Positions 17,736 to 50,143 of a stretch of 64,000 bases of DNA are shown piece by piece; the stretch's first letter is position 1, and every line of letters begins with the position of its first letter. A program made the translations under genes and the position numbers. The stretch lies in the NCBI GenBank assembly GCA_046756405.1, contig JBHHWH010000002.1, positions 240 to 64,239 of the forward strand, in the 5' to 3' direction. Source of the DNA: Acidimicrobiia bacterium (GTDB lineage: Bacteria; Actinomycetota; Acidimicrobiia; Spongiisociales; ZC4RG35). Under the pieces are notes generated by a model. It saw only the letters and a program-made list of their open reading frames with translations. It did no database searches and was not told where the DNA came from.

Positions 17736-17774
17736 GCTGCGGGTCCCGGCGGGGCTTCGCCTAATCTGCCGCCG

Positions 17775-21177: not shown

Positions 21178-21233
21178 CGCTTCCTCCTTGTCTCGGAGGG
21201 TGGAAACTAGTCGTCGCCTAGGAAGGGTCGAAA

Positions 21234-23266
<2,033 letters not shown>

Positions 23267-33045: not shown

Positions 33046-33708
33046 ATGGGCTCGGGTCTAACCCCGGAGCGGGCCCGCTCGGTCTACGACCGGATCGGCC
33101 AGCTCCAGGACTGGCAGAGCTTCTACGAGTCGAAGGCGCTCAACGAGCTGATCATCCACGGGGAGTTCGACTCAGCTCGCGCCGTCTTCGAGCTGGGATG
33201 TGGAACCGGGGCCTTCGCCGAGCGCCTCCTCCGCCATCACCTTCCCCTCGACGCCAGCTACGTCGGCGTCGACGTGAGCGACACGATGGTTCGCCTAGCG
33301 GAGGCACGGCTGGAGGAGTGGCCGGATCGATGCCGGATCGTCCAAACCGACGGTCGGCTGCCGTTACCCGGAAGCGACGCCTCGTTCGACCGATTCATAG
33401 CCACCTACGTCTTCGACCTTCTCCCCGAGGACTACGCCGGGGAGATACTGGACGAAGCGAGGAGGCTTCTCACCGCTGACGGGCTGCTGTGTGCCGCGTC
33501 CCTTACCCGCGGTAGGAAGCCGGCGGAAAAGGCCCTCTGCACCGCATGGGAGTGGGTCGCGAAGCGGTCACCGGCCCTGCTCGGTGGGTGCCGTCCGATA
33601 GAACTCGGCCAGTACCTCGGCCCCAGCTGGGAGATCCTCTATCGCACGGTTGTCTCCGCCTTCGCCGTACCTACCGAGGTGGTCATAGCCAGGCCCGGGC
33701 ACAGTTAG
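33046..33708 (+). CDS. Class I SAM-dependent methyltransferase
   Basis: Motif I VFELGCGTGAF. Motif II/III region (DRFIATYVFDLL, GLLCAAS). Confidence 0.75.
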   Translation: MGSGLTPERARSVYDRIGQLQDWQSFYESKALNELIIHGEFDSARAVFELGCGTGAFAERLLRHHLPLDASYVGVDVSDTMVRLAEARLEEWPDRCRIVQTDGRLPLPGSDASFDRFIATYVFDLLPEDYAGEILDEARRLLTADGLLCAASLTRGRKPAEKALCTAWEWVAKRSPALLGGCRPIELGQYLGPSWEILYRTVVSAFAVPTEVVIARPGHS

Positions 33709-34883
33709 CCGCTTCGCTCCATCGTGGTGATCGTCTCGGCCACGCCGCCCAGCTCCGGATGAAGCCCAGCCACCTGGGCAGCCAGCTCGTTGAGTTCGCG
33801 GAGAGGGTCCTCCGCGGTTAACGCGACGATCTCGAAGGTCGGCGCGGCGACCTCCGCTTTCCCGATGGGTTGTCGCACCAGGAAGAGGGCCAGCTCCGAC
33901 AAGGCCCGGGACATCAGCCGGTAGAGGCGGTCCACCAGATCTGACTTGTCCTCCCGCGGACTGAACAGCTCGGCGAGGGTGAGGTAGGTGTAGCCGTAGC
34001 AGCCGTTGAACAGGTCCGACACCGGCCGAAGCTCCTCCGGGTAGTCCGCGGTGCGGGGGTTGGTTGGGACCGGCCGCACCGGGCCGAGGGGAGATTCGCC
34101 GTCGACGATCTGTGCCAGCTTGTGGTAGTGGGTCAGCTCCTGATGGGAGGGGTCAGTCCATCTTTCGGTGCTCAGGCCCTCACCTTGGTGGACGATGACT
34201 TCGATGGTGGCGAGGGCACTGTCGACCCCGTCTACGAGTATCAGACCGCCACTGTCGGCGGCGTCGAATTCGACTGGCGCGTAGAAGGCAGGGTCTGACA
34301 GCTGGCGTTCCGGTTGCGGGTCGGCGAAGAGGTCGTGTCGCTTCGAAAGTTCAACGATGCCTACTTCCAGGGCATGGTAGAACTGGCCAAGGGTTTCGTA
34401 GGCATCGGGTTCGGGTGGGGCGCCGTGAACTTCGGGCTGCTCTATTCGCATCAGCACCTCCCGGATCATCTCTGTCGAGCACGGCTCGAGGTTGAGTTCA
34501 AGGAGCGGCTGGTGGTGCGGCAGGAGACCCGGGTAGGTGGGCAGAAGCGCCGTTGTATCGAAGCGAGGTTCGCCGCCCATGGCTGTCAGCAGGTTGGCGG
34601 CGAGAACGGCGTGGAGCATCTCCTCGGTGACGATGCTTCTGATGAGGAGCGCCGCTTCCGACCTTTGGTCCTCGATCGAGTACATGGCGAACAGGTAGGG
34701 CGGGATTGTCGAGAGTTCGACCTGGATGGCCAGCTCCAGGTGAGAGCGCAGGTCCTGGGGGGTGTTGATCGGCAAGGGGTCCCTCTTGTAAGGGCTCGAA
34801 ATGTAGCCTGTCGGCGGACGCTCCCATCGGATACGAACTGCATGCGGGTCAAGGGCTTGTTGGACGACTGGCCGCAGCGGCAC
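33705..34883 (-). CDS. Ferritin-like-domain protein (PF12902-type; ELSTIPPYLFAMYSI motif); true N-terminus uncertain, possibly fused upstream
   Basis: 392 aa as tracked from a GTG. Conserved ferritin-like signature (LELAIQVELSTIPPYLFAMYSI ... EEMLHA). No stop separates it from the upstream CDGSH-like frame except by frame change. Confidence 0.65.
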   Translation of the reverse strand: MPLRPVVQQALDPHAVRIRWERPPTGYISSPYKRDPLPINTPQDLRSHLELAIQVELSTIPPYLFAMYSIEDQRSEAALLIRSIVTEEMLHAVLAANLLTAMGGEPRFDTTALLPTYPGLLPHHQPLLELNLEPCSTEMIREVLMRIEQPEVHGAPPEPDAYETLGQFYHALEVGIVELSKRHDLFADPQPERQLSDPAFYAPVEFDAADSGGLILVDGVDSALATIEVIVHQGEGLSTERWTDPSHQELTHYHKLAQIVDGESPLGPVRPVPTNPRTADYPEELRPVSDLFNGCYGYTYLTLAELFSPREDKSDLVDRLYRLMSRALSELALFLVRQPIGKAEVAAPTFEIVALTAEDPLRELNELAAQVAGLHPELGGVAETITTMERSG

Positions 34884-35044
34884 AGCCAGAAAGGGGCGGT
34901 GGCCGGGATCGGCTCGTCGACAGCCCAGGTCTCGGGCTCTCCCAAGGGAGAACGGACGATGTGCTCGGGGGTGAGGGGAAGGTCGGCGCGGACCTCGTAG
35001 GGCCCGTCCCGGGTGATAACGATGTCGTATTCGATTTCGAACAT
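34814..35044 (-). pseudogene. CDGSH-type iron-sulfur-domain-like N-terminal segment with degenerate motif; frame runs into and overlaps the ferritin-like gene
   Basis: MFEIEYDIVITRDGPYEV ... LCRCGQSSNKP matches the bacterial CDGSH fold (GPYxV ... CRCGxSxNKPFCDGSH). The distal FCDGSH reads LTRMQFVSDGSV (third Cys and His lost, 5-aa insertion). The tracked ORF continues to 34586 as composition-biased sequence overlapping the ferritin-like CDS. Confidence 0.4.
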
Positions 35045-35099
35045 GCGCCTTACCGGGACCCTATTCGCCGGAGGCGCCGTCGGCCCGGGCTGGATCGTC

Positions 35100-36068
35100 T
35101 CAGGCGCCAGCGAGCTCTTCGAGGGCCCGGCTGACGAACACCGGCACCATCTTCTTGCGGTAGCGGGAGGTGAGATCGGTATTCGCCAGAGGGCGCGCCA
35201 GCACCCTCGCCTCTTCCGCCGCGACGGTGATGGCCTCCTCGTTCAGAGAGCTCCCCACCAGGGCCTCTTCAGCCTTGGGGACCCGCAGCGGCGCGGAGGT
35301 GATGGCACCCAACACGATCCGGGCTCCGGCGCAGGTCCCGTCTGCAAAGCGGAGCGCGGCGGCGACGCCCAGGATGGGGAAGTCGACGCTGCCCCGACGC
35401 CTCAGCTTGTGGTAGGTGGCTCGTAGGTCAGGCTGGTGGGGGATGGTCACCTCGGTGAGCACCTCGTCGGGCGCCTTTACATGATGGGCCATCCCGTCGT
35501 TCTGGTAGAGGCCCTCGACAGGAAGGGTGCGCCGACCTCCAGGACCCACCAGGGTGACCGAGGCTTCCAGGGCTACCATCACCGGTGCCAGATCCGATGA
35601 GCTGACCGCCCAACAGTGTTTCTTCGCAGGGGCCACCCAGCAGGTGTCACCACCCGCCTTCAGACAAGGCTCGGCCGCCTGACGCCACAGGTCGGGGACG
35701 TTGAGCCAGTCACAGCGGGTATCCACTAGGAGGTTTCCGCCCACGGTCCCCTGGTTGCGTATCTGGGGGGTGGCCACCGACCCTGCTGCCTTGCTCACCA
35801 CCGCCGGAACCCGCGGGTCCTGAGAGACCTCGACGAGGGTGGTGAGGGCCCCGATCCGGATCGTGCCCTCGTCGTCGACCGTCACCCCCCTCATGTCGGG
35901 TACACGCCGCAGGGATACGATCACCGAGGCTGGATGCTGGCGCCGCTTCAGGTTGGGCACCAGGTCAGTACCGCCGGCGGCCAGCACGGCCCCATCGGTG
36001 CCGAGCATCTCGACGGCCTCCTCGACGGTGGTGGGGGTGGCGTGGCGGAGGGGAGGAAGGCGGAGCAT
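35100..36068 (-). CDS. FAD-binding medium subunit of xanthine-dehydrogenase-family enzyme with HcrB-type 4-Cys insertion (predicted [4Fe-4S])
   Basis: 322 aa. FAD-binding domain (AAGGTDL..., ATPQIRNQGTVGGNL). Insertion C119-x15-C135-x7-C143-x8-C152 (TRCDWLNVPDLWRQAAEPCLKAGGDTCWVAPAKKHCW) is absent from CoxM/XdhB-type subunits. Confidence 0.8.
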   Translation of the reverse strand: MLRLPPLRHATPTTVEEAVEMLGTDGAVLAAGGTDLVPNLKRRQHPASVIVSLRRVPDMRGVTVDDEGTIRIGALTTLVEVSQDPRVPAVVSKAAGSVATPQIRNQGTVGGNLLVDTRCDWLNVPDLWRQAAEPCLKAGGDTCWVAPAKKHCWAVSSSDLAPVMVALEASVTLVGPGGRRTLPVEGLYQNDGMAHHVKAPDEVLTEVTIPHQPDLRATYHKLRRRGSVDFPILGVAAALRFADGTCAGARIVLGAITSAPLRVPKAEEALVGSSLNEEAITVAAEEARVLARPLANTDLTSRYRKKMVPVFVSRALEELAGA

Positions 36069-38443
36069 CAGGCTTTGGCCCTCTCTGCCGGCGGTTCCAC
36101 CCGCAGTGGAGGCCGGAACTCGTAGGGAGGGATCCCGTCGGGCCCATAACGGCCGGGACCGCCCCGCTCGCGATCCCGCAGGGCGGAGAGGACGTAGTCG
36201 GGTCGGACCGGGACCTCGTCGACGCGGATCCCGAGGGCGTCGTAGACGGCGTTCACCACTGCCGGAATCACTGGAAGAAGGGGTCCTTGGCCTACCTCCT
36301 TGGCGCCGAAGGGACCCTCCGGGTCGAGGGATTCGACGAGGATCGACTCCACGGGGGGCATCTCCAGGACGGTGGGGATCTTGTAGTCGAGGAGGGATGG
36401 TCCCTTGTGCAGGGCACCTTTAAAGGCCTGCTCCTCCATGAGCACTTCACCCAGGGCCATATGGACGCTGCCTTCTATCTGGCCCTTGACCAGCAGCGGG
36501 TTGATGGCCCGGCCGATGTCGTGGGCCAGCCAGATCCTTCGCACCGACACCATCCCGGTCTCGGCGTCACAGTCCACCCGGGCTACGCAGGCCGCATAGG
36601 AGTAGGCGGGGGAGGGTCCCACTCCAGCACCCTTGTAGTCGCCTTTGATTCCCTCCGGTGGCCGGTAGGTTCCGGAGGTGACCAGGAGTCCATGGTGGGC
36701 TTCGGCGATCCGTACCGCCTCCGCCCAGGAAAGCTCTTTCTCACCGGCCCTCACCGCCCCCTTGCCGATGTCGACCTCATCGACGGCGAGGTCGAACTCT
36801 TTGGCCACGGCCGCCACCACCAAATCGGCGAGCTTGGCGGCGGCTTCGAGGGCGGCGTTGCCGGCCATGAAGGTCACCCGACTGGAGTAGGAGCCGAGGT
36901 CGATGGGAGTCAGATCGGTGTCAGCGGTGATCACCGCCAGCTCCGACGGATCCAGGCCGAGCACCTCACCGATCACCGTGGCCAGCATCGTCGTCGAACC
37001 CTGCCCACAGTCGGCGGCCATGGAATAGACGGTGACGCCGCCCCCCCGATCGACCTTGAGCATCACCTCCGACTGGGGCATGTCGTTGAAGTAGATGGGG
37101 AGTCCTGCCCCGGACAGGTAGCAGCCGACGGCCAACCCAACCCCCTGCCCTTCGGGAAGGCTGCGGTGTTTGCCGGAAAAGTCCGAGGCCTCCACCACCC
37201 GGTCGATGCACTCGGCGAGTCCGGTGGAGGTGATACGGAGGTGGTTGACGGTCCTGGTGAACGGTTCGACCAGATTGCGTCTCCGGATCGTCACCGGGTC
37301 GAGTCCCAAGTCCTCGGCAGCCTTGTCGAGGTGAGCTTCGAGGGCGAAGCGGGGCTGAGGGGTGCCGTGGCCGCGTTTAGGTCCGCAGGCCGGCTTGTTG
37401 GTGAACACCCGCACCCCTTGGAAGCGGTAGGCGGGAATCTTGTAGGTGGTGGTCTGGAGCTGGCCGGTGTAGAGGAGAGAGGCCGCTCCGTAGCTCCCGT
37501 AGGCGCCGCCGTCGACGAAGCTCTTGAACCACATGGCGGTGATCTCACCAACGTCGGTGAAACCGGTCTTCACCCACATCAGCACCGGATGCCGACCCCG
37601 ATGGGCGTAGAAGACCTCCTCCCGGGTGAGGATGATCTTCACCGGACGGCCGGTGATCAGAGCCATCTTGGCGGCGACGAACTCGTGGGAGAAAACGTCG
37701 GTCTTACCGCCGAAACCGCCGCCGGTGAGGCAGGCGGTGACCCGGATTCTGCCTTCAGGCATCTCCAGGACCTGGGCGAGGAGACGATGCAGGTAGTGGG
37801 GGACCTGAGTGGAGGAGTAAAGGTGAAGGCGCTGGTCGTCGCCGACGCGGGCCACCGCCCCGTGGGTTTCCAAGGCGGCGTGGTTGGAGCCCTGGTAGAA
37901 GAAGACATCCTCCCGGATGTGGTCGGCGATCTCGAAGCCGAAGTCAACATCTCCGAACTCGAGGGACACCTCCCGGTGACGGTTGTTGGCGGGCCCCTCC
38001 CGGTGGATGGGCTCATCGACTATTTCCAGGGCCTCGTCGATCGTGGTGACGGCGGGAAGGTCCTCGTAGGTGACTTCGATGAGATCGACCGCCTGCTCGG
38101 CGAGGTCGGGGTCGTCGGCGGCCACCGCGGCTACCGGGTCGCCGACATGACGGACCTTGTCGACAGCCAGGGCGTGCTCGTCCTGGCTCACCGGCAGCAG
38201 GCCGAAGCCGGCAGGCAGGTCCGCACCGGTCAACACGACGTGGACACCGTCGAGGGCCTCTGCCGCGGAGGCGTCGATGCTGACGATGCGGGCGTGGGCC
38301 TTCGGGGAGCGGAGGATCTTTCCGTAGAGCATCCCCGGATAGGAGATGTCGTCCACATACCGGGCCGTTCCCGTCGTCTGGGCGAGGGCGTCTACCCGGG
38401 GCGCTGGCCGGCCGACGATGCCACGGCGGGGTTCGGCGCTCAT
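36068..38443 (-). CDS. Molybdopterin-binding large subunit of xanthine-dehydrogenase-family enzyme (HcrA-like)
   Basis: 791 aa. Ald_Xan_dh_C and Ald_Xan_dh_C2 domain architecture. Start overlaps the upstream small-subunit stop. Stop codon abuts the FAD-subunit start codon. Confidence 0.85.
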   Translation of the reverse strand: MSAEPRRGIVGRPAPRVDALAQTTGTARYVDDISYPGMLYGKILRSPKAHARIVSIDASAAEALDGVHVVLTGADLPAGFGLLPVSQDEHALAVDKVRHVGDPVAAVAADDPDLAEQAVDLIEVTYEDLPAVTTIDEALEIVDEPIHREGPANNRHREVSLEFGDVDFGFEIADHIREDVFFYQGSNHAALETHGAVARVGDDQRLHLYSSTQVPHYLHRLLAQVLEMPEGRIRVTACLTGGGFGGKTDVFSHEFVAAKMALITGRPVKIILTREEVFYAHRGRHPVLMWVKTGFTDVGEITAMWFKSFVDGGAYGSYGAASLLYTGQLQTTTYKIPAYRFQGVRVFTNKPACGPKRGHGTPQPRFALEAHLDKAAEDLGLDPVTIRRRNLVEPFTRTVNHLRITSTGLAECIDRVVEASDFSGKHRSLPEGQGVGLAVGCYLSGAGLPIYFNDMPQSEVMLKVDRGGGVTVYSMAADCGQGSTTMLATVIGEVLGLDPSELAVITADTDLTPIDLGSYSSRVTFMAGNAALEAAAKLADLVVAAVAKEFDLAVDEVDIGKGAVRAGEKELSWAEAVRIAEAHHGLLVTSGTYRPPEGIKGDYKGAGVGPSPAYSYAACVARVDCDAETGMVSVRRIWLAHDIGRAINPLLVKGQIEGSVHMALGEVLMEEQAFKGALHKGPSLLDYKIPTVLEMPPVESILVESLDPEGPFGAKEVGQGPLLPVIPAVVNAVYDALGIRVDEVPVRPDYVLSALRDRERGGPGRYGPDGIPPYEFRPPLRVEPPAERAKA

Positions 38444-38904
38444 CGCTCCTCCGCGGCGACAGCGCTAATCGCCCGGATGATGGGCAGGTAGCCGGTGCAG
38501 CGGCACATGTTGCCCGAAATAGTTTCGGCGATAGTCTCCTCGGAGGGGTGGGGATCGGTGTCGAGGAGGGCCTTGGCAGTGAGGATCATCGCTGGAGTGC
38601 AGTAGCCGCACTGGGCGGCTCCGTATTCGCCGAAGGTGAGCTGGAGGGGGTGGGGCCGGGAGACCGAGCCGATGCCCTCGATGGTGGTGATCTCTTCACC
38701 GCCCACGTCGAGGGTGAGGGTGAGACAGGACAGGATCGGTGTCCCGTCCACCAGGACGGTGCAGGCGCTGCATTCACCCAGTTCGCACCCGTGCTTGGTG
38801 CCGGTGAGCCCGAGATCCTCCCGTAGGGTCTCGAGGAGGGTCCGGTGGGGGGCCACAAAGAGCCGGCGGGCGACACCGTTGACCGTCAGGCTGACTGGCT
38901 CCAT
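38440..38904 (-). CDS. [2Fe-2S]-binding small subunit of xanthine-dehydrogenase-family enzyme (HcrC/CoxS-like)
   Basis: About 154 aa from the ATG with a GGGAGAG SD (MEPVSLTVNG...). Plant-type ferredoxin cysteines CELGECSACTV. Second-cluster motif QCGYCTP...CRCTGY. Confidence 0.85.
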   Translation of the reverse strand: MEPVSLTVNGVARRLFVAPHRTLLETLREDLGLTGTKHGCELGECSACTVLVDGTPILSCLTLTLDVGGEEITTIEGIGSVSRPHPLQLTFGEYGAAQCGYCTPAMILTAKALLDTDPHPSEETIAETISGNMCRCTGYLPIIRAISAVAAEER

Positions 38905-39029
38905 CGTCTCTCCCAGTGACATCAACCCATCGTATCGCACCGTCCCGGCCTCTCCGGAGGGAGACAGGGCGCGGGGGCAGGGGAGACGGCCTCCTTCTGC
39001 ATCCCCCAGCTTCCCACAATCGTCCCTTT

Positions 39030-39043
39030 GGCACCCGGGTGCC
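39030..39043. promoter_or_regulatory. Perfect 14-bp palindrome GGCACCCGGGTGCC in the divergent promoter region between the hcrC-like and PaaK-like genes
   Basis: Read directly from the sequence. Located 34 nt upstream of the PaaK-like ATG and about 130 nt upstream of the hcrC-like start. Candidate dimeric-regulator operator. Confidence 0.3.
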
Positions 39044-39076
39044 GGTCCAGGGTTGCCCGTATTATCCGGAGGTCTG

Positions 39077-40372
39077 ATGGGTTTCTTCGACCGCCATACC
39101 GAGACGACGTCCAGGGCTGGGCTTCGCGATGTCCAATTCGTCAGGCTGGCCGAACTGCTGGCGACCGTTTACGGACGGAACCGGTTCTACACCGACAAGA
39201 TGGACCGAGCCGGGGTCACACCGGACACCGTCCGATCCTTGGAGGACCTGGCCACGCTGCCGTTCACCACCAAGGAGGAACTGGTCGCCGCGGCGGAGCA
39301 GTCGCCTCCCTTCGGAACCAACCTGACCTTCCCCGAAGACGCCTACACCCGGATCCACCAGACCTCGGGCACGACGGGCCGGCCCCTCAAGGTGGTGGAC
39401 ACCGAAGAGAGCTGGGACTGGTGGGGGAGGTGCTGGGGGTATGTGCTCTCCGGTGCCGGTGTCACCGCCACCGACCGTCTGTTCCTGCCCTTCTCCTTCG
39501 GGCCGTTCATCGGTTTCTGGGCCGCAGTCGAAGGAGCCAGGGAGGTAGGCGCCCTGCTGATCCCCGGCGGGGGAGCCGACTCCGTTCAGCGGCTGCACCT
39601 CATCGAAGAGCTGGGGGTGACCGCTCTGTGCGCCACCCCGACCTACGCCCTTCGCCTTGCCGAGGTCGCCCGAGCTGAGGGCGTGGACACGGCGGAGCTT
39701 CCGGTGAGACGGCTCGTCCTGGCCGGAGAGCCGGGGGCCCTGGTGCCGGAAATCAGGCGCCGCATCGAATCTGCCTGGGGGGCGGAGTGCTACGACCATG
39801 CGGGAGCTTCCGAGGTGGGAGCCCACAGCTTCGAGTGTGAGGCCCGCACCGGCGGAACCCATGTGATCGAATCGGAGTTCATCGTCGAGGTGGTGGATCC
39901 GGCCGACCTCCGGCCGGTCCAGGCCGGTGGGGAGGGTGAGCTGGTCATAACCAACCTGGGACGGGTGGGCTTTCCCGTGATCCGCTACCGCACCGGCGAC
40001 CTGGTGCGGTTGAACACCGATCCCTGCGAATGTGGGCGGACCTTCGCCAGGTTCGACGGGGGGATACTGGGGAGGGCCGACGACATGGTCGTGGTTCGGG
40101 GAGTGAACGTCTTCCCCAGTGCTATCGAGAATCTGATCCGTCAGGTGGATGCGGTGGAGGAGTATCAGGTCACCGTCTCCCGGGGCTCCGACCTGGCCAG
40201 TCTGTCAATCGCCATCGAAGTGGGCGAAGGGGCTGACGCGGAAGCAGCCCGGCATGCGGTAGCCAGGAACATACAGAACGAGCTGGCCCTACGACCCGAG
40301 GTGACTGTCGTTGCATCTGACAGCCTTCCCCGGTTCGAACTCAAGGCCCGCCGGTTCCATCTCGTCGACTAG
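39077..40372 (+). CDS. Phenylacetate-CoA ligase (PaaK)/coenzyme F390 synthetase-family adenylating enzyme
   Basis: 431 aa from the ATG with a GGAGG SD. PaaK-family adenylation core (IHQTSGTTGRPLKVVDT). Family-typical length and domain order. The track ORF 38636.. has a non-homologous N-terminal extension. Confidence 0.8.
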   Translation: MGFFDRHTETTSRAGLRDVQFVRLAELLATVYGRNRFYTDKMDRAGVTPDTVRSLEDLATLPFTTKEELVAAAEQSPPFGTNLTFPEDAYTRIHQTSGTTGRPLKVVDTEESWDWWGRCWGYVLSGAGVTATDRLFLPFSFGPFIGFWAAVEGAREVGALLIPGGGADSVQRLHLIEELGVTALCATPTYALRLAEVARAEGVDTAELPVRRLVLAGEPGALVPEIRRRIESAWGAECYDHAGASEVGAHSFECEARTGGTHVIESEFIVEVVDPADLRPVQAGGEGELVITNLGRVGFPVIRYRTGDLVRLNTDPCECGRTFARFDGGILGRADDMVVVRGVNVFPSAIENLIRQVDAVEEYQVTVSRGSDLASLSIAIEVGEGADAEAARHAVARNIQNELALRPEVTVVASDSLPRFELKARRFHLVD

Positions 40373-40379
40373 TGGGTTT

Positions 40380-41504: not shown

Positions 41505-41649
41505 GACACTGCTCCTTTGGCAGGCTGCATCGTTACCTCAGCCTGCCACAGCGGGGCGGCTGCTGTCAGAATCGGCTTCACACGGCGCTCTGTTCCGGCG
41601 ATTCCCACCGAATAGAACAGGGGTGACTTGGACGCCGCCCGAGGAAGGT

Positions 41650-42432
41650 TCAATCGGTCTGGCATACGCTGCGGATGAACTCCACCGTCGCCCGCCGTGT
41701 CTCCTCAGGTCGGGAGAGATGGGGAGAATGGCCGCAGTTCTCAAGCTCGAGCCGCTGCACCGGACCCGATGCGCGCTGTTCGATCATGTCGACGTGGGCG
41801 ATAGTCCCATAGTCGTCGTCCAGGCCCTGGACCAGCAGGATGGGACAGTCGATCCTCGAGAGGAGACTTTCGATGTTCCAGCTCTGAAACTCCGGGTGGA
41901 GCCACACGTCGTGCCAGGCGAAGAACGTTGCCGCCGGATCGCGGTGGTACTTGCCCAGCTTGGCGATGAGTTCACTCCGCTGAGGCTCGCGGCCCATCTC
42001 CCTTATCTTGACCAGGCCGTATTCCTCGACGAAGACATGCGGCGCCAGAAGGACCAGGGCGGTGACCGGATGATGGGCGGCGTGGACGAGAGCGATGGAG
42101 GCTCCGTCGGAGTGACCCACGAGGATGGGACTCGAGATGTCGAGGCTATCGAGCAACGGCGGCAGCACCTCCAGCGCCTCCCGGTCGAAGAAGTCGACGG
42201 GACGGGGTCCCGGGGGAGCCTCCGACCAGCCGTGGCCGCTCCTGCTGTACACCACACCCTTGTGGCCTGTAGCTGCGACCACGTCGTCGGGAAAGCTCCT
42301 CCACAGCTCGATGGAGCCGAGGCCCTCATGAAGGAAGACCAGCGCCGGTTCGGCTCCTTCCCGGTTCTTGATCACGTACTCGAGCCGGCGGCCGGCCACT
42401 TCCAGCAGCGAAGCCCCTTGATGTTGCGACAC
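41650..42432 (-). CDS. Alpha/beta-fold hydrolase
   Basis: 260 aa. HG motif LVFLHEGLGS. Nucleophile elbow VGHSDGAS. C-terminal His in GHSPHL. GTG start. Confidence 0.7.
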   Translation of the reverse strand: MSQHQGASLLEVAGRRLEYVIKNREGAEPALVFLHEGLGSIELWRSFPDDVVAATGHKGVVYSRSGHGWSEAPPGPRPVDFFDREALEVLPPLLDSLDISSPILVGHSDGASIALVHAAHHPVTALVLLAPHVFVEEYGLVKIREMGREPQRSELIAKLGKYHRDPAATFFAWHDVWLHPEFQSWNIESLLSRIDCPILLVQGLDDDYGTIAHVDMIEQRASGPVQRLELENCGHSPHLSRPEETRRATVEFIRSVCQTD

Positions 42433-42497
42433 CGCCGAGAGACTAAATTCGACAGCGGAGAAAGAACGTCACCAGACCCGGTCGAGGAGGAGCAACC

Positions 42498-44024
42498 ATG
42501 CAGATTGGACCCAACACCAGCACGCTGATCGACGGATGGCTCGAAGCCGGCAGGGGCTCCGAGATGGCCCTCATCACCGGGGACGACCAACCCTGGACTG
42601 CAGAGGAGCTGTACGCCGCGGTGTGCAATGTCGCCGCCCGTCTCGCCGAGGCCGGTGTGCGACGTGAGGACCGAATCCTCATGGTCCTGGACGACACTCC
42701 GGCCTTTCCCGCCACCTTCCTCGGCGCCATGCGGATCGGTGCGGTGCCGATCCCTACCAACTTCCTTGCCCGGCCCGACGATTTCGGTTACTTCCTCGAC
42801 GACTCCGAGGCGGTGGCCGCGGTGGTCGACCGCGTCTTCCTGGAAAAGGTCGGTCCCCAGGTGACAGCCCGCCCCAATGTCAAGCTCGTCGTCGCCAACG
42901 GGGATGCTCCCGACGGCGCCGAGTCCCTGGACGAGTGGATGGCCTCCGCCGCCGGCGATGTGGCTCCGGTCCCCACGGCGTCGGACGACATGGCCTTCTG
43001 GCTGTACTCATCGGGTTCCACAGGAGTTCCCAAGGGGGTGGTTCACCGCCATTCGGCAATAGCGGCCACCTGCTCCAACTACGCGGTGCCCGTGCTCGGC
43101 ATCAACGAAGAGGACACCGCCTTCTCCTCCACCAAGATGTTCCACGCTTACGGGCTGGGCAACAACCTCAGCTTTCCCCTCTGGTCGGGGGCGACCTCCG
43201 TTTACATGACCGGCCGTCCCACCCCGGATCGGGTACTCGATAGGGTTCGCACCCGCCGCCCCACCCTCCTCTTTTCCGTCCCTGCCCTCTACAACGGGAT
43301 GCTCGCCGACCCTGGCTTCGACGACGTGGACTGGTCTGTGGTGCGTCTTGGGATCTCCGCCGCCGAGCCGCTGCCGCCGGAGATCTGGCGTCAGTTCCAC
43401 GACCGCACCGGGATCGAGATTCTCGACGGTATCGGCTCGACCGAGATGCTCCACATCTACGTTTCCAACCGTGCCGGAGCGGTTCGACCCGGGACCTCAG
43501 GCACATCCTGCCCCGGATACGAGGTGAAGATCCTCAACACCGAAGGGGAACCGGCCGAGGTCGGCGAACCAGGCGAGATGTGGGTTAGCGGTCCCTCCCG
43601 GCTGCTCCAGTACTGGAACCAACCGCAACGCAACGAGGAGAAGATCCGCGACGGATGGTTCCTCTCCGGGGACCGCTACGTCGAAGACGAAAACGGGTAC
43701 TTCACCTACCTGGGTCGGGTCGACGACATGATGAAGATCGGGGGTCTGTGGGTGAGTCCCATCGAGATCGAGAACCGGCTCATGGAACACGAGGCCGTCC
43801 ACGAGGCGGCGGTGGTGTCGGTGAACATCGACAATCGCTCCCGGATCAAGGCGTTCGTGATCCTCAACGATGGTCACCAGGGAGGACAGGATCTCACCGC
43901 CGAACTCCAGGAGTGGTGCAAGGCGGCCCTCCAGCGCTACCAGTTCCCTCACCTGGTCGAATACGTTGACGATTTCCCCCGGACCGCCACGGGAAAGATC
44001 CAGCGGTTCAAGCTGAGGGAGTAG
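42498..44024 (+). CDS. Aryl-CoA ligase of the benzoate-CoA ligase family (4-hydroxybenzoate/benzoate-CoA ligase-like, ANL superfamily)
   Basis: 508 aa. AMP-binding motifs YSSGSTGVPKGVVH and GIGSTE. Conserved Lys in the C-terminal subdomain (TATGKIQR). Strong SD (GGAGGAG). Overall N-terminal pattern resembles BadA/HbaA-type ligases. Confidence 0.8.
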   Translation: MQIGPNTSTLIDGWLEAGRGSEMALITGDDQPWTAEELYAAVCNVAARLAEAGVRREDRILMVLDDTPAFPATFLGAMRIGAVPIPTNFLARPDDFGYFLDDSEAVAAVVDRVFLEKVGPQVTARPNVKLVVANGDAPDGAESLDEWMASAAGDVAPVPTASDDMAFWLYSSGSTGVPKGVVHRHSAIAATCSNYAVPVLGINEEDTAFSSTKMFHAYGLGNNLSFPLWSGATSVYMTGRPTPDRVLDRVRTRRPTLLFSVPALYNGMLADPGFDDVDWSVVRLGISAAEPLPPEIWRQFHDRTGIEILDGIGSTEMLHIYVSNRAGAVRPGTSGTSCPGYEVKILNTEGEPAEVGEPGEMWVSGPSRLLQYWNQPQRNEEKIRDGWFLSGDRYVEDENGYFTYLGRVDDMMKIGGLWVSPIEIENRLMEHEAVHEAAVVSVNIDNRSRIKAFVILNDGHQGGQDLTAELQEWCKAALQRYQFPHLVEYVDDFPRTATGKIQRFKLRE

Positions 44025-45003
44025 ATCCGGGCGGGTTTTCCCTGCGGAACCACGACGCCACGGTGGCCACCAAGCCCCGCTTGAACCCCAGGAAGATGGC
44101 GACGATCAGCGAGCCGTACAGCACCACCCTTAGCTGGGTGAGGTCGGCCATCAGCTCGTCGATGATGGTGAAAGTACCGGCGCCGATCACCGGCCCGAGC
44201 AGGGTCCCGATGCCGCCGAAGGCGATCATGACCAACACTCGGATGTCCACACTGCCGAAGGCGTAGGTGGAGGGGCCGATGAAGCCCTCCACGTGGGCGA
44301 AGAGGGCTCCCGCCAGCCCGATCATCGCCGAGCCGATGATCCCTGCATAGATGCGGTAGCGCGCCACGTTTACCCCGGCCAGCTCGGCAGCCTCTTCGTC
44401 GTCACGGAGGGCGCGGAAGGCCCAGCCGAGGTGGGAGCGGTGCAGAACCTGGTAGATGATCAGGTAGGCGACCACCAGGCCCACGAAGAGGTAGTAGGGG
44501 GGAACCTGTTCCCGGAGGAAGGTGTCGGCGCCTGTGGAGACCCTTAGTCCGGTCTCCCCACCCGTGAGGTCGCGTTGGCCGAGGATGAACTGCTCAAAGG
44601 CCAGGGAGAAGGCGAGGGTGACGATGCCTACGAAGATCGCCTCGAGAGAGCGCCTCACGGATATCCAACTGAACGAGCCTCCGAAGGCCCCGGCGAGAAC
44701 CGTTCCCATCACCATGGTGACCGTCATTGGCAATCCGAAGCGGTCGGAGAGGATCACCGAGGTGTATCCGCCGATCCCCGCCAGGGCTCCGACGCAAAGG
44801 AAGAGCTGGCCGGTGCTCCCGAAAATGATGTTGAAAGCGACGGCGTAGGCGGCAAACAGGGCGCCGGACACGGCGAGTCCCATCATCACCCGAGAGTCCC
44901 CGAAACGAAGCGGGACCAGCGCCAACAGGACGCCGGTTGCGAGCGCGGGTACCAAGGCCCGCATCAGCGACTTCTCCGCTCTCGGCACAGATACGACGGT
45001 CAT
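44008..45003 (-). CDS. Branched-chain-amino-acid-type (Liv/HAAT) ABC transporter permease, LivM-like
   Basis: 331 aa polytopic protein. HAAT-family permease in an operon with LivH/LivF/LivG/SBP homologs. Confidence 0.8.
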   Translation of the reverse strand: MTVVSVPRAEKSLMRALVPALATGVLLALVPLRFGDSRVMMGLAVSGALFAAYAVAFNIIFGSTGQLFLCVGALAGIGGYTSVILSDRFGLPMTVTMVMGTVLAGAFGGSFSWISVRRSLEAIFVGIVTLAFSLAFEQFILGQRDLTGGETGLRVSTGADTFLREQVPPYYLFVGLVVAYLIIYQVLHRSHLGWAFRALRDDEEAAELAGVNVARYRIYAGIIGSAMIGLAGALFAHVEGFIGPSTYAFGSVDIRVLVMIAFGGIGTLLGPVIGAGTFTIIDELMADLTQLRVVLYGSLIVAIFLGFKRGLVATVASWFRRENPPGSTPSA

Positions 45004-45863
45004 TCGCGGTGCCCCAGGAGTCCGGCTGGGCGAACCAGGATCGTCACTGCCGCGGCCGTGAGAAGAACGATGGTGGTGATGTACGTCCCGACGTAGAACG
45101 AGCTGATCGTGTTCACAACCCCGAGGAGGACGCCGGCGAGGAAAGTGCCGGCGACACTTCCGAGCCCGCCGATCACCGCGACGATCAGCGCGAGGATGGT
45201 GAAGCTGATCCCGGCGGTGACTCCCACGGGGGCAGTCATGGAGCGTGTTACGGCCACCAGTCCCGCGAGGACGCCGCTCAGAATGAAGATGAGTGTCCGC
45301 ACCGAGGCCGGGTTGATCCCAACGAGCCGCGCACCCTCTTCATCCTGAATGACCGATCGGACCGCCCGTCCCGTGGTGGAGTAGCGGAAGAAGGCCACCA
45401 ACAGGATCGCCGCCATGAGAGCGATGGCCGCGGCCAGGAGACCGCCAGCCCGCATCGGGATGCCTAGGACAGTGATAGGACCACCACCAACGGCGATGTT
45501 TATCCGTAGGGTGGTGAGGGGGAACCGCCACACCAGGAGCCCATCAATAGTGATGCCCACACCAAGGGTGAGGAGGAGGCTGAGCAGCACCCTGGATTCG
45601 CCTCGCTCGCGGTATACGGGTCGCATCAGAGTCGAATCGAGGATCAACCCGATTACGCCTCCGATCGCCAGTCCCAGTGTTACCGCGGCGACGGTGGGTA
45701 TCCCGGCGTTGATGGCCACGGCCGCAGCGGTGGCTGCTACGACGGCGATCTGGCCGTGAGCCAGGTTGAGTACGCCGCCGAGACCGTAGACCAGGGTGAG
45801 GCCCACTCCGAGAAGACCAAACTGGAGCCCGAGGACAACGCCGTCCAGAAGGACTGCCCTCAT
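45000..45863 (-). CDS. Liv/HAAT-type ABC transporter permease, LivH-like
   Basis: 287 aa polytopic protein. Overlaps neighbours by 4 nt at both ends. Confidence 0.8.
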   Translation of the reverse strand: MRAVLLDGVVLGLQFGLLGVGLTLVYGLGGVLNLAHGQIAVVAATAAAVAINAGIPTVAAVTLGLAIGGVIGLILDSTLMRPVYRERGESRVLLSLLLTLGVGITIDGLLVWRFPLTTLRINIAVGGGPITVLGIPMRAGGLLAAAIALMAAILLVAFFRYSTTGRAVRSVIQDEEGARLVGINPASVRTLIFILSGVLAGLVAVTRSMTAPVGVTAGISFTILALIVAVIGGLGSVAGTFLAGVLLGVVNTISSFYVGTYITTIVLLTAAAVTILVRPAGLLGHRE

Positions 45864-46558
45864 GCGATACCCAGATAGGCTCGCTGCACTTCCGGATTCT
45901 CCTCGAGCTCGGGAGCCGATCCCTCCAACTGGATGCGACCGTTCTCGAGGACATAGCCTCTGTCGGCGAGGCTGAGCGCCAGGGGTACTTGCTGTTCGGC
46001 GACTAGCAGGGTCAGTCCCTGGGCCTTGAGACGGGTCAGGGCGGCGTAGGCCTCTGCCGCCAGCTTGGGGGCGAGCCCCGTCGTGGGTTCGTCCAGCATC
46101 ATCAGCTTCGGCTTCGACATCAGGCCGCGACCGACGGCAAGCATCTGCTGCTCGCCCCCGCTCATGGTTCCAGCGCGTTGACGGCGACGCTCCTTGAGAC
46201 GAGGGAACAGGTCGTAGACAAGGTCGAAGGACCCGGCCTCGGGCTTGTCGGGATAGGCGCCGAGGGCCAGATTCTCCTCGACGGTCATGTGGGGGAAGAG
46301 ATGTCTCTCTGCGGGCACGTAGGCGACTCCGCGCCGCGAGATGAGGTGGGCGGGGACCCCAGAGATGTCGGTGCCAGCGAATACGACCCTGCCCCGGCTC
46401 GCCATGATCAGCCCGCAGACGGCCCTGAAGAGAGTCGTCTTCCCGGCGCCATTGGAGCCGATGATGGTGACGGCCTCACCGCTCTGCACCGAGATCGAGA
46501 CGTTGTGTACTACATCATCGCCGAAGTAGCCGGCTGACAGCCCGGTTACCTCAAGCAC
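45860..46558 (-). CDS. Liv/HAAT-type ABC transporter ATP-binding protein, LivF-like
   Basis: Walker A GSNGAGKTT. ABC signature SGGEQQ. Walker B LMMLDEP. Confidence 0.85.
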   Translation of the reverse strand: MLEVTGLSAGYFGDDVVHNVSISVQSGEAVTIIGSNGAGKTTLFRAVCGLIMASRGRVVFAGTDISGVPAHLISRRGVAYVPAERHLFPHMTVEENLALGAYPDKPEAGSFDLVYDLFPRLKERRRQRAGTMSGGEQQMLAVGRGLMSKPKLMMLDEPTTGLAPKLAAEAYAALTRLKAQGLTLLVAEQQVPLALSLADRGYVLENGRIQLEGSAPELEENPEVQRAYLGIA

Positions 46559-47294
46559 CGGTCTGCGCCTCGGTTCCCAGGTACGCGGCGATCACCGACG
46601 GATCACGCATGACCTCATGGGGGGTTCCTTCTGCCAACACCCGCCCGAAGTCGAGCACCACCGCTCGCTCCGCTAGGTCCATCACTGCCTTCATCACATG
46701 TTCCACCCAGATCACCGTCACACCAAGCTGGTCGCGGATGGTACGCACGATCTCAATGGAGGCCGTCAGCTCGGTGTCGTTGAGCCCGGCCATTACCTCG
46801 TCGAGGAGTAGTAGCCGTGGGTGGCCGGAAATGGCCCGGGCCAGCTCCAGGAAGCGCTGATCATGGAGGTTGAGGGTTGAAACTGGGTGGCGGGCACGGT
46901 GGTCGAGTCCGACGAAACTCAGAGCCTCCGCAGCCCGATCCCTCGCGTCGTCCTCGTTAAGGAGGCCCTCGGGGCCACCGAACATGGCGCCCAGCAGCAC
47001 GTTCTCTTCGACGGTTAGTGAAGAGAAGGTCTTGGGCGTCTGGAGTACGGTGGCTATTCCCAGGTGGCGGGTTCGATGGGGAAGGGAACCAACCAGGTTT
47101 CTCCCTTGGAAGAGGATCCGTCCGGCCGTGGGCGTGTCGAGCCCGGCAATGAGTTTCAGCAGCGTGCTCTTGCCAGCCCCGTTGGGGCCGACGATGGCGA
47201 GGATCTCGCCATCATCGACCTCAAGGGTCACGCCGTCTACGGCCGGGAGGCCGCCGAACCTCTTCTCGACGGCCTCCAGAGCCAGGACGGCCAC
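46551..47294 (-). CDS. Liv/HAAT-type ABC transporter ATP-binding protein, LivG-like
   Basis: Walker A GPNGAGKST. Walker B LLLLDEVMAGL. C-terminal LivG-type extension. Confidence 0.85.
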   Translation of the reverse strand: MAVLALEAVEKRFGGLPAVDGVTLEVDDGEILAIVGPNGAGKSTLLKLIAGLDTPTAGRILFQGRNLVGSLPHRTRHLGIATVLQTPKTFSSLTVEENVLLGAMFGGPEGLLNEDDARDRAAEALSFVGLDHRARHPVSTLNLHDQRFLELARAISGHPRLLLLDEVMAGLNDTELTASIEIVRTIRDQLGVTVIWVEHVMKAVMDLAERAVVLDFGRVLAEGTPHEVMRDPSVIAAYLGTEAQTGA

Positions 47295-47306
47295 GTTCTC
47301 TACTTC

Positions 47307-48596
47307 CTAACCCTCAGGGACATAGGGCTTGAGGGGGTCGGAATGGATCAGCAGCTCGGGCCACCAATCACCAGCGTCGTTGACCCCTTCGGGGGCCCCG
47401 GTAGCCCTCATGATGACGAACGTTGGCTGAGCCTTGGCCAACTCTCCCCATTCGGTCCACGCCATCTCAAAGGCGTACCCCGGCAGGTTGTAGCTCTGGC
47501 CGTGCAGGTACTCGGCGATGGCCACCGGGTCGGGGCCGACGTTGGCGATGGCGTCGGCCACCATGGTCACGATCCCATAGCCGGCGACAGCGTCATCCTC
47601 CATGAAGACGTTGTCCGAAAACGCCAGGTAGCGCCGGGCCAGATCCTGGTAGCTCTCACTGTCGTAGTCAGCGCAGCCGAAGTCGGCGAAGCGGTCCACC
47701 GCAGCTTCGGCAGCTCCCCCACCCATGATCAGTGAAAGTGGGAACCAAGCCCCGGCTACGGGCACGTCGAATCCGAGGTCGGCGGATTGGACGGTGATTG
47801 CGCCCGCCCCTGGCGGGTGGCCGGTCACGGCAATCATCTCCGGGCCGAACTCGTTGAGGCTCCTCAGGTAGGTGGTGAAGTCGGTTTCGCCGATGGGTGC
47901 GACCTCGATCTGTACCTCGATGTCGCTTCCTTCAAAGGAGCTGAGCAGGGCGGCCTCGATGGCTCGACCCCAGCCGTAGTCGGCAATGATCGCACCGATC
48001 TTCGTGGCTCCGTTTTGGTCTGCCCACTGTCGGATCGGCCCCATAGTCATCGGCGCCGCGGGAAGGCAGGTGCGGAAGGTGTAGCGGCTGTCCCGGGTAA
48101 GGATCGCTCCCGAGCCCGCTTTCACCAGGAAGAGTGGCACCTGGAGTTCTTCAGCGGCGATGGAGGTGTTGAGTCCGACATCGCTGGATATCGGACCACC
48201 GGCTGCGACGACGCCGTCCTCGACCATCCTCTCCAGGGCTTTGACAGCCTCCTCGGCGTTGGACTGGGTGTCGGCCTCAACGAGGACCAGCTTGTGACCG
48301 TTGGCACCACCAGCGGCGTTGATTTCCTCGACTGCCATGCGCATCCCGTCGGCCACTGAGACGCCCCAAGGGGCGAAGGTGGCAGTGAGAGAAGTCAGGA
48401 GGCCGATCTTGATGTCCTCCTTCGGGGCCTCGGTCGTCGCGGCCGCCGGCTCCTCGGCAGCCTTCGTCGTCGGGGTCGCCGGAGCGGGGCCCTCCGTCGT
48501 GGCGGCTGGCTCCTCCGTGGTGGTGGCACAGGCCGCGACGACGAGGGCCATCGCCGTCAGTAGCACGGACCCCTTGATCCAGTTTCGTATCCTCAC
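47307..48596 (-). CDS. Liv/HAAT-type ABC transporter periplasmic substrate-binding lipoprotein
   Basis: 429 aa. Lipobox LVVAAC. Ala/Thr/Pro-rich linker, then a type-I periplasmic binding fold. Strong SD (AAAGGAGGAA). Confidence 0.8.
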   Translation of the reverse strand: MRIRNWIKGSVLLTAMALVVAACATTTEEPAATTEGPAPATPTTKAAEEPAAATTEAPKEDIKIGLLTSLTATFAPWGVSVADGMRMAVEEINAAGGANGHKLVLVEADTQSNAEEAVKALERMVEDGVVAAGGPISSDVGLNTSIAAEELQVPLFLVKAGSGAILTRDSRYTFRTCLPAAPMTMGPIRQWADQNGATKIGAIIADYGWGRAIEAALLSSFEGSDIEVQIEVAPIGETDFTTYLRSLNEFGPEMIAVTGHPPGAGAITVQSADLGFDVPVAGAWFPLSLIMGGGAAEAAVDRFADFGCADYDSESYQDLARRYLAFSDNVFMEDDAVAGYGIVTMVADAIANVGPDPVAIAEYLHGQSYNLPGYAFEMAWTEWGELAKAQPTFVIMRATGAPEGVNDAGDWWPELLIHSDPLKPYVPEG

Positions 48597-48935: not shown

Positions 48936-49421
48936 TTAAGGGGTAACGCTTACCTCTGCCTCTATCTCGACCGGAATCCCGAAGGGAAGCGATGCCATGC
49001 CCACCGCGGAGCGGGCGTGCCGTCCCACTTCGGGGCCGAACATCTCGAGGATGAGGTCGGAGAAGCCGTTGATCACCGTCGGCTGGCGGTCGAACCCCGC
49101 CGTCGAGTTGACCATCCCGAAAACCCGAAGCCAGCCGGTGATGCGGTCGAGGGTGCCTAGGGCCCGTTGGAGGGAACCCAGCATCGACAGTGCGGTGAGC
49201 CGGGCGGCTTCGACGGCCTCGGCGATGGTGACCTCTGATTCCACTTGACCGAAGGGTGGAGCAAGCCTCCCGTCGGGAGCCTGAGGTCCGTGCCCGGAGA
49301 CAAAGGCGCGCTCACCCCTGACGTTGACGAAGGCGAAGGGGAGGACCACCCCCGCAGGAACCTTGACCTCTGGAGGGAGGATCAGCCCCAGTTCAGTCAG
49401 GCGGTCGTCTATCCGGCCCAT
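48936..49421 (-). CDS. RidA/YjgF/TdcF-family reactive-intermediate deaminase-like protein
   Basis: 161 aa. Family pattern ...AFVSGHGPQ...ARSAVGMASLPFGIPVEIEAEV. Confidence 0.8.
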   Translation of the reverse strand: MGRIDDRLTELGLILPPEVKVPAGVVLPFAFVNVRGERAFVSGHGPQAPDGRLAPPFGQVESEVTIAEAVEAARLTALSMLGSLQRALGTLDRITGWLRVFGMVNSTAGFDRQPTVINGFSDLILEMFGPEVGRHARSAVGMASLPFGIPVEIEAEVSVTP

Positions 49422-49426
49422 GCAGT

Positions 49427-50128: not shown

Positions 50129-50143
50129 GGTTGCTCCCTTCGT

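Follow-up and report, generated by a model that had tools for sequence, protein, structure and literature searches.

The question raised by the 64,000-bp stretch of an Acidimicrobiia bacterium contig analyzed here (JBHHWH010000002.1, positions 240 to 64,239; hereafter the window, in which coordinates are counted from its first base) is which reaction is carried out by the three-subunit molybdoenzyme encoded on its minus strand from 38904 to 35100. An earlier note on this DNA had likened the enzyme to 4-hydroxybenzoyl-CoA reductase (HcrCAB; 4-HBCR), an assignment that is upheld here by subunit architecture, a cysteine loop in the flavin adenine dinucleotide (FAD) subunit, and Thauera aromatica HcrA (1RM6_A) as the nearest relative in both sequence and fold. 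Judging by these features, the enzyme is a cytoplasmic molybdenum–flavin–iron–sulfur member of the HcrCAB lineage, and we lean towards the view that it is a ferredoxin-dependent aryl-CoA reductase yielding benzoyl-CoA, probably from 4-hydroxybenzoyl-CoA. The genes overlap or abut, and their coordinates and hcrC-hcrA-hcrB order, already given in the earlier note, were reproduced by open reading frames (ORFs) and Pfam/NCBIfam matches:

38440-38904, minus strand: HcrC-like small subunit (154 aa; two [2Fe-2S] motifs; Pfam Fer2 and Fer2_2)
36068-38443, minus strand: HcrA-like molybdopterin (Mo) large subunit (791 aa; Pfam Ald_Xan_dh_C, MoCoBD_1, and MoCoBD_2)
35100-36068, minus strand: HcrB-like FAD subunit (322 aa; Pfam FAD_binding_5 and CO_deh_flav_C)

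The small subunit, when started at the ATG at 38904, was 154 aa in size, which is the length of its close homologs; its translation contained the eight cysteines of both [2Fe-2S] cluster motifs and opened directly with the ferredoxin fold, with no visible leader of the twin-arginine translocation (Tat) type. Its score against the NCBIfam HcrC model TIGR03193 was 160.1 bits (cut-off 257.8). The FAD subunit matched the HcrB model TIGR03195 in one full-length stretch (254.5 bits, cut-off 404.55), whereas the XdhB, CoxM, and PucC models matched it in two pieces around an insertion; since these matches are split, FAD subunits of the CoxM/XdhB type lack the inserted loop, as had been claimed. The cysteines C119, C135, C143, and C152 of the insertion were verified and aligned without gaps with Cys122, 138, 146, and 155 of Thauera HcrB (1RM6_B), so that the C-x15-C-x7-C-x8-C spacing said to resemble that of HcrB was borne out, and all four were kept in 73 of 73 aligned sequences (the window protein, Thauera HcrB, and 71 homologs from related loci). 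The profile comparison of 35100-36068 suggested in the earlier note thus aligned the loop with HcrB and not with CoxM or XdhB, and the insertion is confirmed as an HcrB-type four-cysteine loop, predicted to be of the [4Fe-4S] type. It should be noted that a related Cys-rich insertion was found in PaoB (5G5G_B) and 5Y6Q_B, both from aldehyde oxidoreductases of the aerobic kind, with a different spacing and with gaps needed for its alignment; because these proteins carry it, the loop alone is no proof of a reductive direction.

The large subunit, deposited as MFQ5522043.1 under the title [quoted passage not shown], contains the Ald_Xan_dh_C and MoCoBD_1/2 domains that define the xanthine oxidase (XO) family. 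It scored 845.5 bits against the HcrA model TIGR03194 (cut-off 994.55), with XdhA as the next model (522 bits), and only 278.6 bits against the PaoC model (cut-off 1180). Among the solved structures, 1RM6_A was matched with 620 bits, the next chain with 284 bits, and the PaoC chain 5G5G_C with 203 bits. Identity to the Thauera enzyme was 43.6% for the alpha and 36.9% for the beta subunit. An AlphaFold2 model of the large subunit was built from 64 members of its clade (mean pLDDT 78.6, the low-confidence stretches including the loops of the GGGFG and RGHG motifs). When this model was compared by Foldseek, the predicted fold was nearest to 1RM6 (TM 0.84-0.88, E = 1.6e-76), while CO dehydrogenase was matched with E = 1e-58.

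In the alignment with 1RM6_A, the segment GAKEAS-E726-GML of Thauera HcrA corresponded to GAKEVG-Q719-GPL in the window, the Gln719 codon occupying 36287-36289 of the minus-strand gene 36068-38443. Thauera E726 is the equivalent of bovine XO E1261, the active-site Glu next to Mo, and Gln719 also aligned with the active-site Glu of nicotinate dehydrogenase, mycobacterial CoxL, Desulfovibrio aldehyde oxidoreductase, and 6-hydroxypseudooxynicotine dehydrogenase. The active-site Glu has been called essential in enzymes of the xanthine dehydrogenase (XDH) family (PMC11760930). The general-base Glu (XO E1261) needed for hydroxylation is absent from the window large subunit, which argues strongly against its being an oxidative hydroxylase or aldehyde oxidase.

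This bears directly on the proposal that the enzyme works oxidatively, as a PaoABC-like aldehyde oxidoreductase or an aromatic hydroxylase with oxygen-tolerant acceptors that receives an aldehyde from the adjacent alcohol dehydrogenase (ADH). Such a role would agree with the related Cys loop in PaoB and in the FAD subunit of the Methylobacillus aldehyde oxidase, with the ADH or aldehyde dehydrogenase genes that adjoin the operon in the window and in the related Armatimonadota locus L088, and with the aerobic-type genes of the window (GlpD, a Rieske protein, and a CoxL-like protein). However, the large subunit is far closer to HcrA than to PaoC (620 versus 203 bits), the small subunit shows no Tat-type leader, the Glu on which hydroxylation and aldehyde oxidation depend is missing, and the consistent linkage of the operon, described below, is to CoA ligases and benzoyl-CoA genes; we therefore regard an oxidative function as quite unlikely.

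The large-subunit phylogeny and active-site inspection that the earlier note had called for were performed on homologs from databases and from 80 related genome loci, all derived from metagenome-assembled genomes (MAGs) of about ten phylum-level groups, including Acidimicrobiia, Armatimonadota, Bipolaricaulota, Fraserbacteria, Chloroflexota, Dormibacterota, Rokubacteria, Acidobacteriota, Planctomycetota, Gemmatimonadota, and Proteobacteria (individual loci are cited by L numbers). Gln stood at the position of Thauera E726 in all 77 homologs from these loci; among 240 homologs from databases, it did so in 239, while in the remaining one the motif was not located. The motif of the clade was GAKE[VAC]GQGPL. 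Glu was found at this position in 17 of 17 other Hcr-like sequences and in 107 of 115 members of the general family (50%-identity cluster representatives). In a neighbor-joining tree (no bootstrap), the Gln sequences formed one clade inside an HcrA-like superclade that also held Thauera HcrA and Glu-type sisters. Thus, the window enzyme falls into the HcrA-like superclade but has Gln for the catalytic Glu. Further markers of the clade were the replacement of Tyr348 by Phe and a C-terminal extension of approximately 25 residues with an invariant Arg, and the gene order hcrC-A-B was kept in essentially every locus of the 80 that was long enough to show it. Judging from these alignments, the Gln enzymes are a distinct and widespread clade, represented here by MAGs and metagenomes only, and, given Gln in place of Glu, their chemistry at Mo and possibly their substrate may differ from those of the Thauera enzyme.

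The "GAKE" Glu upstream of Gln719 (E716) was invariant, as in Thauera, while most of the general family members sampled had "GAKG". Gln213, the GGGFG motif, and Arg357-Gly358 were also invariant in the clade; from their motifs, we take Gln213 and Arg357 to be the counterparts of XO Q767 and R880, respectively. The loss of the catalytic Glu might in itself point to a catalytically dead or purely electron-transferring relic. Such decay is very improbable: over some ten groups of phylum rank, Gln719, Gln213, GGGFG, Arg357-Gly358, all Fe-S cysteines, and the FAD domain are invariant or nearly invariant, and the operon structure is kept in practically every locus of sufficient length. Separately, in the soil Burkholderiales-type locus L087 (7454-13476), genes for an epimerase/3beta-hydroxysteroid dehydrogenase-like protein and an Amidohydro_2 protein (aromatic decarboxylase family) lie between the small- and large-subunit genes, and genes for a pyrroloquinoline quinone (PQQ) dehydrogenase and cytochrome c come next.

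The genes flanking the operon in the window were those previously listed, namely, two aryl-CoA ligases, a Zn-dependent ADH, an alpha/beta hydrolase, and a five-gene Liv importer (44008-48596):

39077-40372, plus strand: PaaK-family aryl/arylacetate-CoA ligase, divergent from hcrC (Pfam AMP-binding and AMP-binding_C_2)
40380-41504, minus strand: Zn-dependent ADH (Pfam ADH_N and ADH_zinc_N)
41650-42432, minus strand: alpha/beta-fold hydrolase (260 aa; Pfam Abhydrolase_6 and Abhydrolase_1)
42498-44024, plus strand: aryl-CoA ligase of the benzoate-CoA ligase (BCL) family (508 aa; TIGR02262, 530 bits, cut-off 375)
44008-45003, minus strand: Liv/HAAT-type ATP-binding cassette (ABC) permease (Pfam BPD_transp_2; homologs beside the Hcr-like operons in L014 and L025)
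45000-45863, minus strand: Liv/HAAT-type ABC permease (Pfam BPD_transp_2; homologs in L014 and L025)
45860-46558, minus strand: Liv-type ABC ATPase, LivF-like (Pfam ABC_tran; homologs in L014 and L025)
46551-47294, minus strand: Liv-type ABC ATPase, LivG-like (Pfam ABC_tran and BCA_ABC_TP_C; homologs in L004, L014, and L025)
47307-48596, minus strand: Liv-type periplasmic solute-binding protein (Pfam Peripla_BP_6)

The PaaK-family ligase remained under the PaaK equivalog cut-offs, and its top match in PDB was the phenylacetate-CoA ligase 4R1L, whereas those of the BCL-family ligase were the benzoate-CoA ligases 2V7B and 4EAT. The best NCBIfam matches of the ADH were of the NDMA-dependent and mycothiol-dependent types, all below cut-off, and a 76% identical copy was found near the Hcr-like operon of L005. 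Homologs of the solute-binding protein (59-61% identity) adjoin ligases and the Hcr-like operon in L002, L004, L005, and L025. The alpha/beta hydrolase, with weak PcaD-like similarity, had no counterpart in the 80 related loci and, because of this, is considered only loosely part of the module. A plus-strand ORF opposite it (41503-42528, 341 aa) was rejected as a gene: since it matched no Pfam or NCBIfam family, had an atypical composition, and looked like a high-GC shadow ORF, it was treated as spurious. A promoter and terminator scan of the hcrCAB operon was uninformative.

The related loci were read by tblastn with defined queries and from precomputed gene calls, neighbors being counted over the 80 loci with queries from L081 and L086 (E-value of 1e-10 or better, coverage of at least 50%). 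BoxC was found in 16 loci, BoxB in 14, Bcr subunits in 7-8, Had in 8, an Oah-like hydratase in 15 (7 at 60% identity or more), oxidoreductases of the KGOR/IOR type (IOR, indolepyruvate:ferredoxin oxidoreductase) in 9, a BCL-family ligase in 16 (14 at 50% identity or more), and a PaaK-like ligase in 14 (13 at 50% identity or more). With the window ligases as queries, the PaaK-like ligase was detected beside the Hcr-like operons of 12 loci (52-67% identity) and the BCL-family ligase near those of 12 loci (41-46% identity). Among the 48 loci with a length of 15 kb or more, 20 had a marker of benzoyl-CoA pathways within 10 kb of the operon. In close Acidimicrobiia relatives (approximately 65-80% identity), the operon adjoins genes for BoxB/BoxC, a class-I benzoyl-CoA reductase-like enzyme, Had/Oah/Dch, and 2-oxoacid:ferredoxin oxidoreductases. 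In L081 (81% identity), for example, LivG, LivK, a PaaK-like ligase, and a BCL-type ligase are encoded on one strand, BoxC, BoxB, HcrCAB, Had, Oah, and Dch, in this order, on the other, and a class-I benzoyl-CoA reductase-like BcrCBAD set with a TetR gene again on the first. The scores of such genes against curated models exceeded the cut-offs (given in brackets): BoxC 862 bits (712), BoxB 830 (499), Had 469 (339), and Oah 559 (464).

The module of two aryl-CoA ligases and a Liv importer with an Hcr-type enzyme, as claimed in the earlier note, recurs in other phyla: the Armatimonadota locus L088 combines Liv genes, an aldehyde dehydrogenase, a ligase of the BCL type, IclR, HcrCAB, and a PaaK-like ligase that shares 56% identity with that of the window, the Liv-type permease genes being recognized there and in L089 by Pfam annotation. 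By contrast, the earlier statement that a reductive enzyme of this kind is unexpected in such a host does not hold; the host is not surprising, because the operons of its close relatives adjoin box, bcr, had, oah, and dch genes and because an earlier study described bcr and box genes in Acidimicrobiia from sediment (PMC12008989).

The association with box genes raises the further proposal that the enzyme is a partner of the aerobic box pathway, either supplying the BoxB epoxidase with electrons instead of BoxA or abstracting oxygen from 2,3-epoxybenzoyl-CoA to regenerate benzoyl-CoA, a reaction that would not need a general-base Glu. Box genes occur within 10 kb of the operon in 16 loci, and in seven of the 80 (L001, L002, L004, L005, L008, L033, and L055; MAGs of Acidimicrobiia and the Acidobacteriota type), hcrC follows boxB directly and in the same direction; in L064, L067, and L080, the arrangement is divergent. 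In the two loci inspected for regulators, one of the BoxR type (helix-turn-helix with a shikimate kinase-like domain) is encoded upstream of the box genes, and a search of the box-linked loci for a BoxA-like ORF bearing a 2x[4Fe-4S] motif gave none within 10 kb. However, BoxA may be encoded elsewhere in those genomes, the window itself contains no box genes, and seven other loci (L003, L010, L017, L018, L020, L050, and L062) tie the operon to bcr/dch/had/oah only. Moreover, in Betaproteobacteria MAGs, a BCL-hcrCAB unit is divergent from the box genes. In L064, a BoxD (687 bits, cut-off 444) is encoded beside the operon, so that the enzyme does not replace this aldehyde dehydrogenase. A role as a box partner is thus judged unlikely. 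The idea that the enzyme stands in for BoxD by oxidizing the CoA-bound semialdehyde was rejected in view of this bona fide BoxD and the missing catalytic Glu.

Enzymes that reduce ferredoxin are a further element of these neighborhoods, IOR/2-oxoacid oxidoreductase genes adjoining the operon in nine loci and in L089. In L089, which represents a divergent Gln-type lineage, a run at 13284-22301 encodes HcrCAB, a LeuCD-like dehydratase, a PaaK-like ligase, an isopropylmalate synthase-like protein, IOR (alpha subunit 669 bits, cut-off 651), and a second 2-oxoacid oxidoreductase of three subunits, with Liv and Had/enoyl-CoA hydratase genes nearby. In L082 (204-6549), a second divergent Gln-type lineage, the Hcr genes stand beside those for an isopropylmalate synthase-like protein, IOR, and a second, three-subunit 2-oxoacid oxidoreductase. 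These arrangements may represent chain shortening of aromatic 2-oxoacids or a tyrosine route. What the loci have in common is the metabolism of benzoyl-CoA, along with the formation of aryl-CoA esters and enzymes that reduce ferredoxin.

From this context, we infer what the enzyme acts on, in which direction it works, and where its electrons come from. An aromatic acid would be taken up via the Liv-type importer and converted by one of the two ligases into its CoA thioester, from which the enzyme would reductively strip a substituent of the ring; the likeliest candidate is the para-hydroxyl of 4-hydroxybenzoyl-CoA. The resulting benzoyl-CoA would enter a central pathway of the box or bcr type, whose genes would lie in another part of the genome. 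Electrons would pass, as in Thauera, from reduced ferredoxin to the [4Fe-4S] cluster of the FAD subunit, then to FAD, the two [2Fe-2S] clusters, and Mo. The anaerobic route of tyrosine and 4-hydroxyphenylacetate in Thauera and Aromatoleum ends in 4-hydroxybenzoyl-CoA. This compound is taken as the default substrate, and the IOR and PaaK-like neighbors fit such a route.

Several observations weigh against this function. All three subunits are sub-threshold for the NCBI HcrCAB equivalogs, and the identity to the only biochemically characterized enzyme is modest (43.6% alpha, 36.9% beta). In the alignments, Thauera HcrA retains the active-site Glu, while the window protein has Gln, and in the NCBI naming, the Glu-type relatives are called HcrA and the Gln clade "xanthine dehydrogenase family protein". 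No cultured member was present among the 80 loci or the top 120 homologs of a betaproteobacterial Gln-type query, and a plasmid search for cultured relatives yielded nothing above 37% identity. No box, bcr/bam, dch/had/oah, ferredoxin, or 2-oxoacid:ferredoxin oxidoreductase genes were detected within the 64-kb window. The most conserved ligase partner is of the PaaK type and not the BCL-type 4-hydroxybenzoate ligase of known systems, and the position of the operon after boxC-boxB under a benzoyl-CoA-type regulator in some relatives would suit an action at or after benzoyl-CoA.

The substrate may be other than 4-hydroxybenzoyl-CoA, a caveat entered in the earlier note and strengthened by the change from Glu to Gln. 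As an alternative of distinctly lower probability, the same type of enzyme would reductively remove a different substituent of an aryl-CoA, still giving benzoyl-CoA, candidates being the deamination of 4- or 2-aminobenzoyl-CoA and the dehydroxylation of 3-hydroxybenzoyl-CoA or protocatechuoyl-CoA. The sub-cut-off scores against the hidden Markov models and the 43.6% identity to Thauera HcrA are compatible with this, as are the clade-wide replacement of Glu by Gln next to Mo, Phe for Tyr348, the C-terminal extension, the pairing, within the module, of a PaaK-type ligase with a ligase of another kind, and the Hcr-like proteins of Desulfatiglans anilini, which have been proposed to act as a 4-aminobenzoyl-CoA reductase (PMC7500099). 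Nevertheless, nothing direct favors any particular alternative, no marker genes of aniline, anthranilate, or resorcinol metabolism were present in the relatives' neighborhoods examined, and the tyrosine/4-hydroxyphenylacetate route suggested by the IOR and PaaK-like neighbors leads to 4-hydroxybenzoyl-CoA. A broader proposal, which we put forward tentatively and as rather doubtful, is that the Gln-type enzymes are a functionally distinct XO subfamily and not simply orthologs of 4-HBCR, so that the lost general-base Glu could be the sign of a different reaction at Mo. This could be the removal of a non-hydroxyl substituent or, in the many box operons without boxA, the direct withdrawal of the oxygen atom of 2,3-epoxybenzoyl-CoA or a supply of electrons to BoxB; if true, such a subfamily would connect aerobic with anaerobic benzoyl-CoA metabolism at low oxygen.

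Downstream of the FAD subunit gene, two further features had been described in the earlier note as possible redox partners or repair factors:

34586-35044, minus strand: degenerate CDGSH-like ORF, reading CRCGQSSNKPLTRMQFVSDGSV
33705-34775, minus strand: ferritin-like (PF12902) gene (356 aa, MPINTPQDL...; NCBI MFQ5522041.1)

The start of the ferritin-like gene was placed at the TTG at 34775 and not at 34883, based on the starts of homologs and on the NCBI protein. Its product matched PF12902 over the full length (173 bits, model positions 1-220 of 221), and its homologs were stand-alone proteins of approximately 325-373 aa; in the one other genome context examined, the gene lay among unrelated genes. 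The CDGSH-like ORF scored 30.2 bits against PF09360 (cut-off 29.5) over model positions 1-42 of 48 only; of the motif C-X-C-X2-(S/T)-X3-P-X-C-D-G-(S/A/T)-H (three Cys and one His), the third Cys and the His are gone. This ORF overlaps the ferritin-like gene by 190 nt in a different frame, and the NCBI accessions of the ferritin-like, FAD, and Mo proteins run consecutively (41, 42, and 43), which leaves no room for a called CDGSH-like protein. The independent Logan contig L085 likewise has no gene call at this ORF, and because it is 100% identical over the region, the layout is not an assembly error. A single frameshifted fusion of the two was also rejected, as homologs of the ferritin-like protein start with MPI(N/D/E)TP and have no CDGSH domain. 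Homologs of both features were found in none of the 80 related loci by tblastn, even with no coverage filter. Thus, the synteny search proposed earlier recovered the module of ligases, Liv importer, and Hcr enzyme but not these two features, and a role as redox partners or repair factors finds no support in a degenerate, uncalled ORF and a gene that are both absent from related loci. The CDGSH-like and ferritin-like genes are bystanders of the Hcr-like enzyme, and the CDGSH-like piece is most likely a decayed remnant.

Elsewhere in the window, a second molybdopterin large subunit is encoded at 17775-20057 on the plus strand, with top matches to glyceraldehyde dehydrogenase alpha and carbon monoxide dehydrogenase group 5, all below cut-off. 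It is preceded within 15024-20057 (plus strand) by genes for a MoxR/CoxD-like AAA ATPase, a CoxE-like von Willebrand factor A (VWA) protein, and a response regulator; since no genes for FAD and Fe-S subunits are adjacent, this CoxL-like gene is an orphan. Two tandem paralogs of glyceraldehyde-3-phosphate dehydrogenase (336 and 341 aa) are encoded at 21234-23266 on the minus strand. Beyond the solute-binding protein gene, at 48936-50974 (minus strand), there are genes for a YjgF/RidA-like protein, a protein with the metallo-beta-lactamase fold, and a PcaD-like alpha/beta hydrolase (128 bits, sub-cut-off), which are probably outside the module because they are absent from related loci.

Taken alone, the window yields a modest result, namely, a module for the uptake and activation of an aromatic acid with an Hcr-type reductase and two unrelated neighbors. 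For the question of how the family switches from oxygen insertion to oxygen removal (PMC12771579), the Gln clade, which is large and strongly conserved and keeps the whole Hcr cofactor chain with Gln for the catalytic Glu, is a natural experiment. It is common in soil and sediment MAGs of Acidimicrobiia, Dormibacterota, Rokubacteria, Acidobacteriota, and Burkholderiales and is often wired to the oxygen-dependent box pathway, which is a hint of a hybrid pathway of phenolic acid breakdown, at present annotated as "HcrA" or hidden under "xanthine dehydrogenase family protein".

Among known systems, HcrCAB of T. aromatica (1RM6/1SB3) and HbaBCD of Rhodopseudomonas palustris resemble the window enzyme in the C-A-B order, the three subunits, the two [2Fe-2S] motifs, the C-x15-C-x7-C-x8-C loop of the FAD subunit, the best match in sequence and fold, the "GAKE" signature, the link to aryl-CoA ligases, and, for the relatives of the window, the link to benzoyl-CoA genes. 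In contrast to Thauera HcrCAB, the window enzyme (43.6%/36.9% identical) remains below three equivalog cut-offs and has Gln719 for Glu726 and Phe for Tyr348, and its clade differs from both systems in approximately 25 extra C-terminal residues, a usual ligase of the PaaK type, and frequent box operons. PaoABC of Escherichia coli (5G5G) also has three subunits and a Cys-rich insertion at the same place of the FAD subunit, which in PaoB binds a [4Fe-4S] cluster; however, it is periplasmic and oxidative, has the catalytic Glu, another Cys spacing, and a distant large subunit (203 bits). The Hcr-like proteins of D. anilini are similar in their aryl-CoA ligase context and have a proposed non-hydroxyl leaving group; they are induced by aniline and 4-aminobenzoate, and the reductase proposal is drawn from proteomics alone (PMC7500099). 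The urolithin C 9-dehydroxylase Ucd/Ucdh of Enterocloster is, by its published description, likewise a reductive dehydroxylase of the XO family (PMC11760930, PMC12771579). It differs in that the conserved Glu (E741) is kept and the [4Fe-4S] loop is absent (PMC11760930), and it uses NADH as the donor and does not act on a CoA ester, being approximately 33% identical to 4-HBCR. The phenol attacked by Ucd stands para to a carbonyl that withdraws electrons, so that the reductive chemistry of the family is broader than that of 4-HBCR (PMC11760930, PMC12771579).

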